64,000 nucleotides of DNA from a virus: UHGV virus genome UHGV-0198106; one strand, given 5' to 3'. Below are positions 50,465 through 62,816 of the stretch, in pieces. How positions within the stretch are numbered: the stretch's first letter is position 1; every line of letters starts with the position of its first letter. The translations under genes were made by a program, and so were the position numbers. The notes beneath the pieces are model-generated. The model was not told where the DNA came from. It saw only the letters and a program-made list of their open reading frames with translations, and made no database searches.

Positions 50465-50568
50465 AAGAGCTCTTAGCGAGGGTGACAGGACTCGAACCTG
50501 CATACTCCATTTACTTCTTTAACGACCGCTTAGAAGGCGGGGAAGATACACCCTCACTAAGAGCTCTC
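50465..50568 (-). other. structured element: 20-bp inverted repeat enclosing tRNA-like T-arm and anticodon-like hairpin
   Basis: Arms aagagctcttagcgagggtg / caccctcactaagagctctc; on the minus strand GCAGGTTCGAGTCCTGT (T-arm-like) and CCGC-CTTCTAA-GCGG (UCU anticodon-like loop); no canonical D-arm, so not called as tRNA. Confidence 0.3.
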
Positions 50569-54106: not shown

Positions 54107-54208
54107 CTTTGATTAGATTCTTTTATTAGCACACTGAATCAATGCACTGATAAAAGAAAAGGCGCTACCCGTTAAGATAGCGCCTCATGTTTATTCAAAT
54201 TGTCTTAC

Positions 54209-55108
54209 TTATGCTGCCTGACGTGCTGCCATAATTTCAGCCGCTTTACGCAATACTTCTTCCTCTTCTTCTTTCGCAGCTTGTTCGGTACGGGTAGCAA
54301 CCGTTGAAGAGATACGACCGCGCAGACTTTCTAACTTCTCCTGCATAGCTGCAACAGCCTTTTCCATTTCATCAGCATATGAATCAAGTGATTCCAGTTC
54401 CTTGCTTGATGCGTTCATCAGATAGTCATCAGAGATCGCTACAGTTGAGGCCGTTACTTTCTTGATGAGTGAGTCGAAAGACTTCTTAACCTTCCCAACT
54501 TCTTCACTTAAGGCAATAGTGTTATCACTAGTTGCGCCGTTGCGTTCATCAGCCAGCAACTTGGCTTCAATGCGGATTGCGTTCAAGCGTTCAACCAAAG
54601 CGTAAATATCTTGGTTAAAATCTTCCTTGTTTTTCGCCGGGATTTGCAGGTGTGCCGCCACGTTGTCGTTACAGCCTTTGTAGAAGTTAGGATTATCAAC
54701 TTCAATTGCACGACCTAAAGCAAAGTTTTCGAAAGCGTTTGACCAGCGAGCGCGGTTTTGCTCCATTTTGGTTTTAATCTGCGCTTCTTTCGCATCTTCT
54801 TTAGCTTTCGCTTCACCTTCCAGATTAATCCACTTTTTACGACCATTTGCCGCATCGGTGTTAAACTTGATAGGGGTTAAGAAAGTGATTGCGGTAGCAA
54901 TAACATCCATATCGCGGAAGCGTTCAGTTAACAGGAAATCAACCGCCGCTTGTAATACGTCCAGTTTCTTACCGTTGCTGCGGAAGTGCTGTAAGTGCCC
55001 TAACAGGAAGTTAGATACGTCTTGCTTAATCGCTGCGTTGTTGCTGCGGATGTTGTTAGCCAGAGCGTTAAAACCAGATTCGTTAACCAGAGTAAAGATT
55101 TTAGCCAT
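54209..55108 (-). CDS. first early gene product, function unknown
   Basis: Trimmed to ATG 55108 after AAAGGTGA; first ORF downstream of the three tandem early promoters; helical, Ala/Glu/Lys-rich C-terminus. Confidence 0.5.
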   Translation of the reverse strand: MAKIFTLVNESGFNALANNIRSNNAAIKQDVSNFLLGHLQHFRSNGKKLDVLQAAVDFLLTERFRDMDVIATAITFLTPIKFNTDAANGRKKWINLEGEAKAKEDAKEAQIKTKMEQNRARWSNAFENFALGRAIEVDNPNFYKGCNDNVAAHLQIPAKNKEDFNQDIYALVERLNAIRIEAKLLADERNGATSDNTIALSEEVGKVKKSFDSLIKKVTASTVAISDDYLMNASSKELESLDSYADEMEKAVAAMQEKLESLRGRISSTVATRTEQAAKEEEEEVLRKAAEIMAARQAA

Positions 55109-56031
55109 GATATTCACCTTTCAATTGTAAGGGCACTATGCCCCGCTCTCTATGAGCTTGCTTAAGTCACTATTAACTTAACTCTAACCACTCACTTTTT
55201 AAGTAGTTACAGGTAAGTGAGGCGGTCTTATCAGGAGTTAACCTTTCCGCCTCCTTATCCGTGATGTTTCATCTGGTATCTTTAATTAGTCGCTATAAAC
55301 TAAGCCGACCTGATAGCGATGATCAATCATCACAATAAGGCAGTGCGTCCGACTCTAATTAGTTACATTTATTGTAACCGTCGGCAATATCGTCTACTTT
55401 GTTTTCGCTCTCGCCTATCCTTTTGTATCAACTCTCAATCGCTAGTCATCGCCCACTACGGGATACTATTGCGAAAGAGTCATTGACCGTCTAATGTTCC
55501 GACGTTTTATATCTTTCGGCAAGTTTACTACATAAACCGACTATGTACTTTCATCATAAGATGAATCTCAAGCCGTTCACATCGTAAACGTTCACACTAA
55601 GCCTTATTGTTAAATAGCAATTTGCCACTTTTTAACCGCTCCCCGCCGCTCGCAATTGAGCTTGTATTCGTCGGACTTGTCTACCCTGATTAACTTCTTT
55701 CACTGTAGCGCCTTGTTAGCGATGACCGCCGCTACCCTTAACCGTGGGCGATTAGCTTAAGTCTCTGCGTGCACTCAGTGAATCCGTTTGTCAGTGGTGA
55801 CGTTTCCAGTAAGGGATTGCAAGATTGTTTCCTCTGATAGTTTAGAGAATCTTACACCGTTTTATCTGGCATACTTTCCGATGGTTATTATCTTCAAGCA
55901 TGTTCAACCGATATAGAAGAACGTTTAAATTGTTAAAGAGCGGTAAATCTATCAGCATGTTTACTCACGCTATGCAACTGTTAGCCGTTGTCTCGCTTCG
56001 CTTCGGAATGTTTCCCTTAGCTAATGTGCTC

Positions 56032-56060
56032 ATTATGACCTATCTCTCAGCGCCTGTCAA
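56032..56060 (-). promoter_or_regulatory. early promoter P1 (sigma70-type)
   Basis: On minus strand TTGACA (56055-56060), 17 nt, CATAAT (56032-56037); A-rich tract upstream of -35. Confidence 0.55.
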
Positions 56061-56208
56061 CCATCTTTTTAATCTTTTTCGTCGTTCCCTTTATTGGGAG
56101 GATATATCAATCAGCTATATTTGATTGAGGATTACTAAGCGGCTCGGCTAGTGAATCAGGTCATATTGTTAAAGAACTTGTTAGCGGTGTATCTGCTAAC
56201 TGGTAATC

Positions 56209-56236
56209 ATTATAACTTATTAGATTACCTTGTCAA
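56209..56236 (-). promoter_or_regulatory. early promoter P2 (sigma70-type, consensus hexamers)
   Basis: On minus strand TTGACA (56231-56236), 16 nt, TATAAT (56209-56214); A-tracts upstream of -35. Confidence 0.6.
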
Positions 56237-56355
56237 CTCTTTTTATCGTCCTCTTTTTATTCTTTTCCCTTATCTCGCGCGAATCTTTGCGAAAGGGCAG
56301 GACGATAAGTTTTTAAAGAGCATTTGCAAGTTTCCTTGCTTTGTTTCTGATACCC

Positions 56356-56383
56356 ATCTTACTACGTTTGAGCATCTTGTCAA
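56356..56383 (-). promoter_or_regulatory. early promoter P3 (sigma70-type)
   Basis: On minus strand TTGACA (56378-56383), 16 nt, TAAGAT; A-tract upstream. Confidence 0.45.
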
Positions 56384-56640
56384 TCTTTTTTATTTCTTAT
56401 CGATTACCTGTTTTTCGTACGACTTATCAGGTTGTCTACTTGGTACTGCTTAACCGATGAATAGATAATAGAGGAAGTGAGGAAGGAAAGCAACCTTTAT
56501 TTTGATTATTTTCAGGGAGGAGAGATATAAAGGAACGCGCACGCGAATAACACACTAGAACAGGCTTGTAAAGCAATATTTGACGCTCTCAGACGCATCA
56601 CAACGAGCTAAAAGAGGGTAAGGCATACAATCGCCTTAGA

Positions 56641-56666
56641 AATGAGAAAAGCCTCACTAGGAGGCT
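56641..56666 (-). terminator. rho-independent terminator upstream of the early promoters
   Basis: On minus strand AGCCUC-cuagu-GAGGCU followed by UUUCUCAUUUCU; downstream of gene ending 56743. Confidence 0.65.
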
Positions 56667-56742
56667 CACAGGAAGGATTAGAGAATCAGATAAATTATGA
56701 CCATAGGCATGACCACGGCACAATACAGCAGAAAGATTAAGC

Positions 56743-57120
56743 CTATGGATTTACACACTGACCATTACCGGATTTTATTTCGTTCATAGATTCATCAAAG
56801 AGCGTCAACGACGAGCGCAGCAAGTGATCGACCGTAATTTGCTTACCAGTGGTTTCGTTAGTCATGTGGATAGACTTGTCGTAGGTTATGACACTCTCAA
56901 AATCTTCTACATGTAAAATAATAACCTTAGGTGACTTTTTACCAGTTTCATAATCTTCTATAAGATAGGTGCATTGCAAGCCTTCGATAGTATCAGGCGT
57001 GAACGTTGCAGCCTTTACACTACCAATAGACGACAGCAGGACACCTAACAGAAGAACAACCAGAAAGAAGCCTACAATCACTTTCACTACAAACTTGATA
57101 ACACCCATGATAATAGTCAC
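56743..57120 (-). CDS. membrane-anchored/secreted protein
   Basis: N-terminal hydrophobic segment VIVGFFLVVLLLGVLLSSIGSVKA; 125 aa. Confidence 0.45.
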   Translation of the reverse strand: MTIIMGVIKFVVKVIVGFFLVVLLLGVLLSSIGSVKAATFTPDTIEGLQCTYLIEDYETGKKSPKVIILHVEDFESVITYDKSIHMTNETTGKQITVDHLLRSSLTLFDESMNEIKSGNGQCVNP

Positions 57121-58701: not shown

Positions 58702-59356
58702 TCAATCGATAGATTCAATTTACCACTACCTGATAAGGAAAGCAAGCCCACGGGTAAACTATTTCTACTATCTATATAGGACGGGGACATACAACCGCAG
58801 GACAGACCACGGGGAAAGGTAGCTAGATAGTGCGGTAGTAATATACCACTTAAATAATCATCAACTCATAAAAGAAAAAGACCAACAGAACGCTGAAAAA
58901 AGAAAGGAATAAAAGAAATTATTAAAAGAAATACAATCATCCACTTAATTAATACATACATCATTATTGCACTCATAATCATTACATTTAGAATCATTTA
59001 CATTCAAACTATGGGGGCTTGTGACTATTACTCATGGGCATTATATCGCCTCAATCTATTGGTACAGTGGAAGACTAGCCTCTCATCCACTCTTTAAAGG
59101 GGAACTAAATAAACGGGTAGGTAATGTATTGGGTAGTATACACGGGGAAAGAATAACGGGGAGTAGGCACGGGGAAAGGTTGGAACGTGGAAGGAGGTGT
59201 AAAGGCATTGCCAATAACCCTTTTTTAAATGAGGACTCCCCCTTTTTAGGAAACGCGCGGGAAGCGGCTAGCCCCACTCGGTCAAATCAGGATTTTAAAC
59301 TCTTATATATAACTATGGAGGGTTTAATTACGGGATTGGATACTGCACATGAAGTA

Positions 59357-61274: not shown

Positions 61275-62816
61275 ATGTCATTAGATAAACAAATTTATGA
61301 AGCTCTAACTGGTAACAACCTTAGTGTAGATGAAAAGAAAGCACTATTGAATATGTTGAAAGAGCGTGACCAATGGAGGAAGTATAATAGGATTTTGTCT
61401 TTCAAGGCGTATGACTTCCAAAAGAAATTTTATGCAGCAGGATTGAAGCATCGCTTTAGATTCTTGTGTGCAGCGAACCGTGTTGGTAAATCTTATAGCG
61501 AGGCATACGAGTTTGCTTGTCATGTCACAGGTCGCTACCCAACTTGGTGGACAGGATATAAATTTAAAAGACCTATCTTAGCATGGGCAGTTGGTATTAC
61601 AGGGGATTCCACAAGGAAAGTATTGCAAAAGGAATTGTTTGGTACACCTATCGGAAAGGATACAAATTTATTAGGGACAGGTGTCATTCCTCGTGATGCT
61701 ATCGTCATTGATACGATAGAACGAGATGGTAACAAACTTCAAATCGTACAAATCAAACATCAAAATGAGAGAGGAGAGTTTGACGGTTTAAGTACATTAG
61801 AATTCCGTTCAACCCAACAGGGTGAACACACATTGATGGGTGCAACAGTTGATTACATTTGGTTAGACGAAGAAGATCCATACGAGTCTATGGCTATATT
61901 CGCACAGTGCGTCACACGTACACTCACAACTAAAGGTCTAGTTACAATTACAGCTACACCAGAGAACGGTTTAACTGAACTGGTAGATAAATTTATGAAA
62001 GGTGAAGGAGATGAGAACACAGGTTCTCTATATTTCCAGAATGCTTCTTGGTGGGATGCTCATGCAGACCTAGGTGGACATATCACTGACCAAGATATAA
62101 AAGATATGACTGAAGGTATTCCAGCGTGGCAATTAGAGATGCGTTCAAAAGGTATGCCATTGTTAGGAAGTGGTTTGATTTACGATGTATCGGATGACAC
62201 AATTAAATGTGAACCATTCGAAATTCCTGATACGTGGAAACGTGTCTGTGCAATTGATATTGGTATTGATCACCCAACTGCTGCTGTTTGGACAGCTTAC
62301 GACGCAAACACGGATACTATCTATGTTTACGACTCATATAAAGAAGGTGGCTTTACTCCAGTGTATCATGCTCCAGCTATTAATGGTCGTGGTCAGTGGA
62401 TTCCTGTCATCCTACCGCATGATGCGGACAATATTGAGAAAGGTAGTGGTTCATCTGTTGCTCAATTCTATAAGAATGCAGGAGTTAACGTACAGAGTGA
62501 TACCTTCTACAACAAAATTGGAATGGATGGTAAAAAGAACTTCTTTGTAGAACCGGGAATCACAGATATCCGTGAAAGAATGATGAGTGGACGCTTTAAA
62601 ATCTTTAACACAGCCGCTAACGCTAAGCTATTCGAAGAGAAAGCTAGATATCACCGTAAGGTTGGTAAGATTATTAAAGAACATGATGACTTAATGGATG
62701 CAATGCGCTATTCAGCGTGCTCTGTTACACATCGTGGTCGCTCTAAGCATGATGTTAGCTACGGAAGCGCTTCTTTGTATGAGGCAAACGTAAGCAGATG
62801 GAATCAGAGCTACTAA
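61275..62816 (+). CDS. terL: terminase large subunit
   Basis: 513 aa; N-terminal ATPase region (AANRVGKSYSEAYEF), C-terminal nuclease-type region (VCAIDIGIDHPTAAVWTAYD); followed by portal gene. Confidence 0.8.
   Translation: MSLDKQIYEALTGNNLSVDEKKALLNMLKERDQWRKYNRILSFKAYDFQKKFYAAGLKHRFRFLCAANRVGKSYSEAYEFACHVTGRYPTWWTGYKFKRPILAWAVGITGDSTRKVLQKELFGTPIGKDTNLLGTGVIPRDAIVIDTIERDGNKLQIVQIKHQNERGEFDGLSTLEFRSTQQGEHTLMGATVDYIWLDEEDPYESMAIFAQCVTRTLTTKGLVTITATPENGLTELVDKFMKGEGDENTGSLYFQNASWWDAHADLGGHITDQDIKDMTEGIPAWQLEMRSKGMPLLGSGLIYDVSDDTIKCEPFEIPDTWKRVCAIDIGIDHPTAAVWTAYDANTDTIYVYDSYKEGGFTPVYHAPAINGRGQWIPVILPHDADNIEKGSGSSVAQFYKNAGVNVQSDTFYNKIGMDGKKNFFVEPGITDIRERMMSGRFKIFNTAANAKLFEEKARYHRKVGKIIKEHDDLMDAMRYSACSVTHRGRSKHDVSYGSASLYEANVSRWNQSY

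Follow-up and report, generated by a model that had tools for sequence, protein, structure and literature searches.

The window, a stretch of 64,000 nucleotides, is the DNA of a phiEco32-like coliphage (Kuravirus). The preliminary description had placed it beside the T7-like phages; the phage is not T7-like, but a 37-nt homology to T7 and a shared boxA survive from that comparison. All features described below are read on the minus strand unless indicated. On the upstream side, the region starts after a terminator-like hairpin with a U-run (56649–56667), located 3' of the gene 125 homologue and ending a small upstream operon; SU10 and SU7 carry a terminator annotation at the homologous site, which is also described in print (PMC4281155). 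On the downstream side, the next conserved gene is the homologue of phiEco32 gene 124 (54209–55108, 299 aa), which begins, as read earlier, at an ATG at 55108 with AAGGTG before it. Its product, gp124, has no significant Pfam match and belongs to a PHROG family without known function, while the gene always co-occurs with the leader that precedes it. Just 3' of gene 124 lies a strong intrinsic-terminator-like hairpin (54159–54186, 12 pairs plus a U-run), annotated as a terminator in WFI101126 and SU7. ARAGORN found no tRNA or tmRNA, and the leader resembles neither rRNA nor any sequence in the complete E. coli genomes.

Between these borders, the three tandem sigma70 promoters proposed before are confirmed: P1 (56356–56383, TTGACA-16-TAAGAT), P2 (56209–56236, TTGACA-16-TATAAT) and P3 (56032–56060, TTGACA-17-CATAAT), matching the consensus at 10, 12 and 11 of 12 positions, respectively. 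Their occurrence is far above chance, with five matches to TTGACA-N16/17-YAWRAT in the 64 kb against 0.32 expected (0 of 100 shuffles reach five), three of which fall on one strand inside 352 bp. The A-rich tracts reported upstream of each -35 box are also present (56384–56400, 56237–56267 and 56061–56085 for P1, P2 and P3, respectively); together they constitute repeat family D1, that of P3 being conserved in all relatives, and we take them to be comparable to UP elements. P3 itself is conserved in 28 of 28 kuraviruses, with a spacing to gene 124 fixed at 912–956 nt; its homologue in SU10 is the published promoter at 73511. The three promoters had in fact already been predicted in print, for SU10 'like phiEco32' (PMC4281155). 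Given their orientation towards the downstream genes and spacers within the 16–18 bp criterion, they are predicted to be sigma70-dependent early promoters. Further upstream, a 37-nt stretch (56405–56441) is approximately 95% identical to T7 nucleotides 552–588, located between the T7 promoters A1 and A2.

Each promoter is followed by a module, overlooked in the preliminary description, with the same order of elements, a hairpin and then a boxA, which is also the order of rrnB. The boxA consensus is GYTCTTTAANA, where the C at position 4 is critical (bioRxiv 10.1101/091223). Exact matches occur four times in the 64 kb, against 0.64 expected, and three of the four are on the transcribed strand, 31–90 nt after the three -10 boxes. 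Both boxA1 (56310–56321, GCUCUUUAAAAA) and boxA2 (56166–56177, GUUCUUUAACAA) are exact consensus matches; boxA3 (GCUCUUUAACAA, 55941–55930) comes with an invariant 5' flank (AGAUUUACC, the two together spanning 55930–55950). The E. coli rrnB leader has 16 nt in common with boxA3 and its flank, and a metagenome-derived rrn leader has 22 nt in common with them; searched in metagenomes, the boxA-flank 22-mer recovered further kuraviruses, as well as two genuine rrn leaders of bacteria and one phage-like contig that is unrelated. The fourth exact match (62672–62682), antisense within a long plus-strand ORF, was taken as chance.

As for the hairpins, a small boxB-like one (GCAAG-GAAA-CUUGC, 56326–56339) is found 4 nt 5' of boxA1, and another (GUUAGC-N9-GCUAAC, 56180–56200) 2 nt 5' of boxA2. 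Two covarying hairpins (helices 4 and 5, 55953–55990) precede boxA3, the second of them (55972–55953) being boxB-like and thus placed in the rrn order; three of seven pairs are compensatory, helix 5 having three such pairs. Individually, each boxA-adjacent hairpin is weak (z-scores of -0.9 to -1.9), and divergent clades have a hairpin at the same position before boxA with different stem sequences. The arrangement recurs in 22 related spacers: each contains 3–5 boxA copies, all of them in sense orientation and most preceded by a strong promoter. No boxA, on the other hand, accompanies the early promoter that precedes the translated 128–125 operon. Comparison with the rrnB and metagenomic rrn leaders did not reveal a boxC (GU-rich, UGUGUGGG) 3' of boxA; AAUUUAAACGUUCUUC follows boxA3 instead. 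An additional hairpin with a boxA-like GCUAUUUAACAA (55607–55630, boxA-like part at 55618–55607) sits in a 16-nt run invariant in 28 phages, but it is devoid of the critical C4 and was not counted as boxA. In a wider scan of viral contigs, modules of a consensus promoter and boxA were common, often ahead of tRNA arrays. On sequence grounds, the hairpin-boxA modules would be rrn-type Nus antitermination sites, from which we infer Nus-factor loading and Rho resistance. A boxA and hairpin after each promoter appears to be new for phiEco32-like phages: in the literature, Savalia 2008 and Pavlova 2012 apart, we found no pairing of boxA with phiEco32 or of Kuravirus with non-coding RNA, and the BASEL preprint is silent on boxA and leader RNA.

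Transcription from P3 would then run through a leader of about 917 nt (55109–56025, the start being placed from the -10 box) before reaching gene 124. As stated in the preliminary description, this region holds no minus-strand ORF of at least 60 codons, the longest one between 55109 and 56400 having 38 aa; on the plus strand, there are ORFs of 74 and 100 aa. The CHD5UKE1 record annotates 10–11 tiny ORFs in the leader region. A higher GC content than the surroundings had also been claimed, which is correct relative to the promoter zone (0.41–0.45 in the leader, 0.37 in the zone) but not relative to gene 124 (0.445–0.455). The variable columns of the leader distribute over the three positions mod 3 as 155/142/142, compared to 87/57/255 in gene 124, and no 150-nt window presents a 3-base periodicity (best p = 0.16). 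Furthermore, 84 of the 126 pairwise indels in the leader are of 1 nt, and no sense ORF is conserved across relatives, four phages being without any sense ORF of at least 25 aa.

What the leader does present is an extensive RNA structure. The predicted fold, with about 40 helices, includes 284 pairs, 98.3% of them canonical. Compensatory changes appear in 72 of these pairs, compared to 25.8 +/- 3.1 in shuffles and 9–11 in slid controls, with the caveat that all sequences are from related phages, so that shared ancestry supplies part of the covariation (the slid controls retain this relatedness). With the set of 28 sequences, 78 of 237 pairs show compensatory changes. When the structure is mirrored to the antisense strand, just 89% of the pairs are canonical, indicating strand specificity. 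In line with this, the MFE z-score is -5.9 for the leader versus -0.09 for gene 124. The structure prediction and covariation analysis suggested earlier thus yield compensatory pairs well above controls, and the proposed abundant, structured early non-coding RNA is upheld as a structured RNA, by covariation, strand specificity and conservation; its accumulation is something that we infer.

Two multi-helix domains dominate the fold. Domain I (55631–55929, about 300 nt) is closed by a helix of 55929–55916 with 55644–55631, and Domain II (55332–55610, about 280 nt) by one of 55610–55601 with 55341–55332 that covaries across clades. A candidate 9-bp long-range helix would connect them, pairing AUCGCCCAC on the Domain I side (55744–55752) with GUGGGCGAU on the Domain II side (55448–55456); it has two compensatory pairs in three haplotypes and is kept in a clade whose gp124 is only 49% identical. 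A 3' series of hairpins (55130–55331) follows, the last of which (55144–55130) is GC-rich and, with the subsequent UUACAAUU, may be a weak attenuator.

Comparison with known RNA families gave no counterpart. At gathering score, the scan of the whole window with Rfam 15 (GOLLD, ROOL, OLE, HEARO, 6S, tmRNA, RNase P and introns included) returned only a tRNA, outside the leader region; with E up to 10, the scan of the region gave chance-level fragments only, and three divergent relatives had no match with E up to 1. A CsrB-like sponge was rejected, as the 12 GGA motifs compare with about 18 expected from base composition.

Taken globally, the leader is better conserved than the gene that it precedes, with a mean pairwise identity of 87.8% versus 83.9% for gene 124. 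Metagenomic relatives in which gp124 is only 49–70% identical maintain the same layout of promoters, two or three boxA and a structured leader. In such divergent relatives, the last boxA is 870–936 nt ahead of the ATG, the leader z-scores range from -4 to -10.9, and 86 and 116 compensatory pairs are found versus 9–29 in slid controls. A covariance model of the Domain I core (R1, 55803–55677) matches the syntenic place in L162 and L163; it found no copy in the other phage loci with promoter-boxA modules, 805 kb in total, and an invariant 24-mer is found in IMG/VR in five kuraviruses only. The leader is a conserved, strand-specific, structured non-coding RNA, a finding that appears to be new.

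The previous analysis leads to a model in which the region is probably both the control region of the main early transcription unit and its first product, laid out like an rRNA operon and producing a boxA-protected structured RNA. Mechanistically, the host sigma70 RNA polymerase would initiate at the three strong promoters with their A-rich upstream tracts, and each transcript would bear a small hairpin and a boxA inside its first 25–110 nt. In E. coli, boxA RNA binds NusB-NusE(S10) and, with NusA, NusG and SuhB, renders the polymerase Rho-resistant. Rho terminates untranslated RNA, and boxA/Nus shields long non-coding transcripts from it in rRNA operons, suhB and CRISPR arrays (PMC7665894; bioRxiv 10.1101/091223). 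In the phage, boxA/Nus antitermination would protect the large early RNA in the same way; such protection would be needed because the next ~0.9 kb are untranslated, and the boxA elements thereby offer a mechanistic rationale for the long untranslated leader. Since those ~0.9 kb encode a conserved and strongly folded RNA, the leader amounts to a gene for an RNA, or to an RNA domain at the least, rather than to an empty spacer.

The closest analogy is with the E. coli rrn leader. The rrn operons comprise P1 and P2 with UP elements, a boxB-boxA-boxC array, a NusB/E/A/G-SuhB-S4 complex and a leader-trailer helix around the 16S rRNA. Shared with the phage region are the strong sigma70 promoters, placed in tandem and preceded by A-rich tracts, the hairpin ahead of boxA (with the 16 nt identical to rrnB) and a long structured untranslated RNA downstream. 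Unlike rrn, the phage region has no boxC, carries a boxA after every promoter instead of one, and is followed by an RNA unlike rRNA and by a protein gene. The predicted helix between the boxA flank and the 3' end of the leader recalls the rrn leader-trailer helix (PMC10250234), but it is limited to 9 bp, without covariation. In CRISPR arrays and the suhB leader, too, a long untranslated transcript begins with a boxA that prevents termination by Rho (Stringer et al. 2020, PMC7665894; Baniulyte et al. 2017), these being host loci whereas here a virulent phage has a single large structured RNA downstream.

The T7 early region displays part of the same scheme, with three tandem host-type promoters (A1, A2 and A3) at its start, an exact rrn-type boxA (813–824) after the last of them and the direct 37-nt homology. 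It also includes the RNase III site R0.3. However, only one boxA is found in T7 versus three in the window, and the leader from A3 to gene 0.3 spans 175 nt, compared to ~920 nt of conserved multi-domain structure here; the two phages belong to unrelated families (Autographiviridae and Gordonclarkvirinae).

The strongest alternative, which we nevertheless consider rather unlikely, is that the structured region acts purely in cis, as the 5' UTR of the mRNA for gene 124, providing protection against RNases or Rho, a delay, or gating of gene 124 translation through the Shine-Dalgarno sequence, and has no separate role as a product. The leader indeed directly adjoins gene 124, the two are inherited together in every case, and the terminator closes the unit directly after the gene. 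Moreover, the Shine-Dalgarno region (AAGGUG with the ATG, 55106–55122) is predicted to pair with 55948–55938, in the flank beside boxA3. Both sides of this helix (helix 6) are invariant, hence it shows no covariation, while a local hairpin over the Shine-Dalgarno was rejected, its apparent covariation proving on inspection to be an artefact, produced where the TH42 clade is shifted by one base in the alignment. A pure UTR is also difficult to reconcile with a leader conservation exceeding that of gene 124, and with a fold of about 40 helices in which two domains of ~300 nt are each closed and are joined by a conserved helix, far above the needs of known cis regulators.

Less likely still is that boxA and hairpins serve an antiterminator encoded by the phage, as nut sites serve lambda N, rather than host factors alone. 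As in nut, a boxA and an adjacent hairpin, here with a purine-rich loop, would be present on a nascent early phage transcript, with Nus factors predicted to take part, and the phage has many small early proteins of unassigned function. However, the hairpin is located 5' of boxA in all three modules, as in rrn, so that none of them shows the boxA followed by a 3' boxB of a lambda-type nut, and the boxA copies fit the rrn consensus and not the shorter lambda form. The protein would, besides, be needed before, or be made from, the same transcript. In favour of such a factor is the strong intrinsic terminator after gene 124, as N-type complexes can pass intrinsic terminators. Complexes of the rrn type are inefficient against them, and for this reason may not read processively through the whole early region.

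It is very improbable that the region is mainly a DNA element (a replication origin, an entry or ejection stop, or a packaging signal) with the RNA as a by-product. Its location, 4–5 kb from the point where the leftward and the rightward blocks of genes meet, would suit such a role, and T7 has transcription-activated origins and transcription-driven DNA entry beside its tandem early promoters. On the contrary, the region has no repeats other than the A-tracts of the promoters and the copies of boxA; iterons and an AT-rich unwinding block are absent from the leader, and no inflection of the GC skew is seen there. A DNA element would also leave the strand-specific G-U pairing unexplained: conservation follows base-pairing with G-U on one strand only, which points to a single-stranded transcript. 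A DNA element may nonetheless exist within the promoter zone. Finally, the small unannotated peptides that had been suggested, overlooked by annotation pipelines, can practically be dismissed despite the tiny ORFs of CHD5UKE1, the 38-aa sense ORF and the two plus-strand ORFs, in view of the lack of a conserved ORF or codon periodicity and of indels mostly of 1 nt.

Returning to the rRNA-operon-like model, the role of the RNA itself is a more tentative matter. Our guess is that it is a stable early RNA or an RNA-protein scaffold, possibly with the co-inherited gp124, with a function beyond that of an mRNA leader. In its strongest form, which we regard as possible but somewhat short of an even chance, the leader would constitute a new class of ~0.9 kb multi-domain phage RNA, the very first abundant early product, acting in trans. 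If so, it could scaffold a ribonucleoprotein, act as a decoy for a host factor that binds RNA or assembles ribosomes, or counteract defence, possibly with the participation of gp124. The phage-associated RNAs GOLLD (about 800 nt) and ROOL (about 580 nt), both in Rfam and of unknown function, are of a similar size class, also phage-borne and with many covarying helices; the leader differs from them in having no Rfam match, an E. coli host and a place in a defined early operon. The 174-nt pRNA of phi29, which works with a protein-primed packaging system, is likewise a structured RNA from an early promoter near the genome end of a prolate-headed podovirus, but neither sequence nor Rfam similarity connects it with the leader RNA, for which no packaging link was seen. 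Were the trans-acting role true, RNAs with the complexity of GOLLD or ROOL would be available in easily grown E. coli phages, made by a polymerase dressed as for rRNA.

Few large structured RNAs without an assigned function are known, and most of them come from organisms or metagenomes beyond manipulation. The leader RNA, in turn, is present in phiEco32, SU10 and phages of the BASEL collection, which can be propagated on E. coli (K-12 with restored O-antigen among the strains), and therefore its structure, partners and function can be directly tested. The boxA finding suggests a rule, namely that phages borrow the host rRNA antitermination signal for long untranslated genes, which would aid the annotation of non-coding phage genes and account for the escape of long untranslated early transcripts from Rho. 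In the case of phiEco32, whose early transcription has so far been described in terms of sigma70, gp36 and gp79 only, it would add a layer that depends on host factors.

The region is the counterpart of the ~1.9-kb spacer that separates phiEco32 genes 125 and 124, both oriented leftward on the minus strand. Matching sequence, 80-93% identical at the nucleotide level, occurs in ~98 phages of Escherichia and Shigella that belong to the phiEco32 group (Kuravirus and Suseptimavirus, subfamily Gordonclarkvirinae). Across database records, no consistent annotated gene is present in this spacer, one over-called record excepted. RefSeq records and PHROG 13168 call the gene 125 homologue (56743-57108, minus strand) a 'terminase', a label that looks unreliable, since the 121-aa product starts with a hydrophobic stretch resembling a signal peptide and has no Pfam hit. 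At 58800-59000 the GC skew flips sign and gene orientation turns from leftward to rightward, at the junction of the early block with the other-strand block (the genome-end region in phiEco32 coordinates). Elsewhere, at 50477-50555 (minus strand), an Rfam tRNA match (30.2 bits against a gathering score of 29; not called by ARAGORN) could correspond to the one tRNA that phiEco32-like phages are reported to carry, or be degenerate.

Three tandem sigma70 promoters were confirmed on the minus strand exactly where the preliminary description had placed them: P1 (56383-56356), P2 (56236-56209) and P3 (56060-56032), with 10/12, 12/12 and 11/12 consensus matches. They are not new, having been published earlier as predictions. 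The SU10 genome paper reports three sigma70 promoters in the spacer, as in phiEco32, with a terminator following the gene upstream of the spacer and the P3 homologue listed in its Table S2 (PMC4281155). Under a stricter pattern (TTGACA, 16-17 nt, YAWRAT), the 64 kb contain five matches versus 0.32 expected, three of them within 352 bp on one strand. The A-rich tracts described upstream of each -35 box are indeed present and form one repeat family. With transcription start sites inferred from the -10 boxes, P3 is followed by a leader of ~917 nt (56025-55109, minus strand), and the next conserved gene, the gene 124 homologue (55108-54209, minus strand), begins at ATG 55108, as previously stated. 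The leader is also as poor in ORFs as had been claimed, since minus-strand ORFs before gene 124 reach 38 aa at most. Its supposed GC richness is weaker: at 0.41-0.45 it exceeds the promoter zone (0.37) but not gene 124 (0.445-0.455).

Each promoter is followed by a copy of boxA on the transcribed strand. These copies, GCTCTTTAAAAA, GTTCTTTAACAA and GCTCTTTAACAA (boxA1, 56321-56310; boxA2, 56177-56166; boxA3, 55941-55930), sit 34, 31 and 90 nt past the three -10 boxes, and all three agree with the gamma-proteobacterial consensus GYTCTTTAANA, in which the C at position 4 is critical (bioRxiv 10.1101/091223). Exact matches number four in the 64-kb window versus 0.64 expected; the fourth, antisense within a long plus-strand ORF, was taken as chance. 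BoxA3 has 16 consecutive bases in common with the E. coli rrnB leader (fetched for comparison) and, with its flanks, shows a 22-nt identity to genuine bacterial rrn leaders from metagenomes. In the predicted fold a small hairpin precedes each boxA, which is itself unpaired, as in rrnB. Related spacers (22 in number) hold 3-5 boxA copies each, in every case on the sense strand, and nearly all of their strong promoters have one 14-95 nt beyond the -10 box. The upstream promoter-boxA modules differ in number and spacing among phages, while the layout from P3 onward is fixed. No boxA was found behind the early promoter of the translated genes 128-125.

A structured RNA had been among the options offered for the leader, with covariation across related phages as a proposed check, and the analysis bears this option out. 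RNAalifold on 18 sequences predicted 252-284 pairs, and standard pairs make up 98.3% of cells on this structure. Two-sided changes occur at 72 pairs, compared with 25.8 +/- 3.1 in column shuffles (0/500 reach 72) and 9-11 in a slid control, where partners were moved 1-3 columns with relatedness kept; in the 28-sequence leader alignment, 78 of 237 pairs are compensatory. G-U pairs account for ~10% of cells and the mirror-image structure on the opposite strand is 89% canonical, so the molecule that folds is of the same sense as the early transcript. Folded singly, the sense strand has an MFE z-score of -5.9 and the antisense strand one of -3.15, compared with -0.09 for an equal-length stretch of gene 124. 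Judged from these folding models and alignments, the leader is a structured RNA. It is rich in purines and has more G than C (A311 U224 G223 C168), which would make it a poor substrate for Rho loading, and its mean pairwise nucleotide identity (87.8%) is higher than that of gene 124 (83.9%).

The alternative that the leader holds small unannotated peptides is not supported. In the alignment of the P3-to-gene 124 stretch from 28 phages, whose length is constant at 912-956 nt, variable columns are spread over the three phases as 155/142/142 (best 150-nt window, p = 0.16), versus 87/57/255 in gene 124 (p about 1e-12). No sense ORF of at least 25 aa is common to the aligned leaders, four phages lacking any, and 84 of 126 pairwise leader indels relative to the window are single bases. 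By these sequence tests the leader is non-coding. Searches of the leader returned no matching Rfam family, tRNA or tmRNA, similarity to E. coli sequences, iterons, GC skew inflection or GGA motif enrichment, and no recognisable domain was detected in gp124, the product of gene 124.

On the minus strand, the leader opens with 5' hairpins and boxA3 (56025-55930), followed by Domain I (55929-55631), a hairpin overlapping a boxA-like sequence without C4 (55630-55607), Domain II (55610-55332), a row of 3' hairpins (55331-55130), and the Shine-Dalgarno and ATG of gene 124 (55122-55106). The longest runs invariant across the 28 phages are AGAUUUACCGCUCUUUAA (boxA3 and flank) and GCAAAUUGCUAUUUAA (the boxA-like site). 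The boxA-like GCUAUUUAACAA (55607-55618, minus strand) carries A in place of the critical C4, is partly inside the hairpin and lies in a 16-nt run invariant in 28 phages. A covariation scan for helices outside the nested fold predicted a 9-bp Watson-Crick pairing of Domain I (55752-55744, AUCGCCCAC) with Domain II (55456-55448, GUGGGCGAU). Three haplotypes of this pairing occur, set apart by one and two compensatory pairs. On the Domain II side, the altered bases lie in a loop and a bulge of the local hairpin, which leaves the long-range pairing as their only explanation. A helix predicted to pair the Shine-Dalgarno region with the flank of boxA3 shows zero covariation and is offered as a suggestion; how the 3' third folds in detail varies with prediction settings.

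GenBank homologues of gp124 are confined to the same 98 phages, and a search of metagenome-derived proteins added others that are about 70% or about 49% identical. In every fetched metagenome contig, the gp124 homologue is preceded by 1.4-3 kb in which no gene is called. These regions contain strong promoters and 2-3 copies of boxA on the sense strand; the final copy is 870-936 nt ahead of the ATG, behind a hairpin with a stem that differs in sequence from clade to clade. Leader identity between clades is just 43-51%, and blastn detected no similarity of the 49%-clade leader to the window except short motifs. All nine leaders are nonetheless strongly structured (z -4.0 to -10.9), covariation within each clade taken alone far exceeds slid controls (86 vs 9-15; 116 vs 22-29), and neither metagenomic clade displays codon periodicity in the leader. 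The AUCGCCCAC...GUGGGCGAU pair is unchanged in 4/4 members of the 49% clade and present as a U-G variant in two 70%-clade members, and a covariance model of the Domain I core matches the syntenic position in the 70% clade (E = 0.004). All leader homologues come from phages of one lineage. The distant relatives (L161 955-2577; L162 983-2700; L164 935-2500) carry a further ~1.6 kb without called genes between the promoter-boxA array and the divergently oriented genes upstream.

The NusB/E/A/G-SuhB complex, assembled on boxA, blocks Rho termination on rRNA, suhB and CRISPR arrays (PMC7665894; bioRxiv 10.1101/091223; PMC4807359; PMC10250234), and untranslated transcripts are Rho termination targets (PMC7665894; bioRxiv 10.1101/091223). 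Very strong promoters with a 0.9-kb untranslated stretch directly behind would be exactly the case needing anti-Rho protection, and a boxA-assembled Nus complex, if Nus factors bind as the motifs imply, would shield the leader transcript from Rho. The locus is therefore most likely an rRNA-operon look-alike, with tandem UP-type promoters, hairpin-boxA and a long structured RNA. The boxA/Nus-modified polymerase is also faster, and in T7 transcription helps draw in the genome; this speed could be important if transcription helps genome entry here as well. Constraint stronger than that on the neighbouring gene, together with the long-range tertiary pairing, argues that the leader has a function as RNA, be it that of a scaffold or decoy acting in trans, a gp124 partner or an elaborate cis leader. 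Since a strong intrinsic-terminator-like hairpin (54186-54159, minus strand; 12 pairs and a U-run) comes right after gene 124, the leader and gene 124 may together form a unit of their own, provided that polymerase does not read through the hairpin.

The T7-like layout proposed earlier suits the control region, even though T7 and this phage are unrelated. Downstream of its promoter A3 and before gene 0.3, T7 (NC_001604) carries the exact rrn-type boxA GCTCTTTAACAA (813-824), just ahead of the R0.3 region. The analogy also rests on a 37-nt stretch just upstream of P1 (56441-56405, minus strand), with an additional A-rich insert between it and the -35 box, that matches T7 552-588, between promoters A1 and A2, at about 95% identity. 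Such sequence identity suggests that early-promoter modules have been exchanged between unrelated coliphages. Scanning IMG/VR for a consensus sigma70 promoter followed by GCTCTTTAA within 38 nt gave modules in at least 120 viral contigs, versus a roughly estimated chance expectation of <10. Among the matches listed, 81 contigs were analysed: 32 carry tRNA genes in the 2.5 kb that follow the module (191 tRNAs in total), and stretches of 0.7-1.5 kb free of ORFs occur in several of the rest. A freshwater metagenome contig (L027 1187-1671; L032 4071-4900) presents two tRNA-like genes, boxA ACCGCTCTTTAACAATTTAAAC and then an ORF, with no similarity to the kuravirus leader. The use of boxA to protect non-coding genes may be common in phages, and boxA may be a general marker of phage non-coding transcription units.
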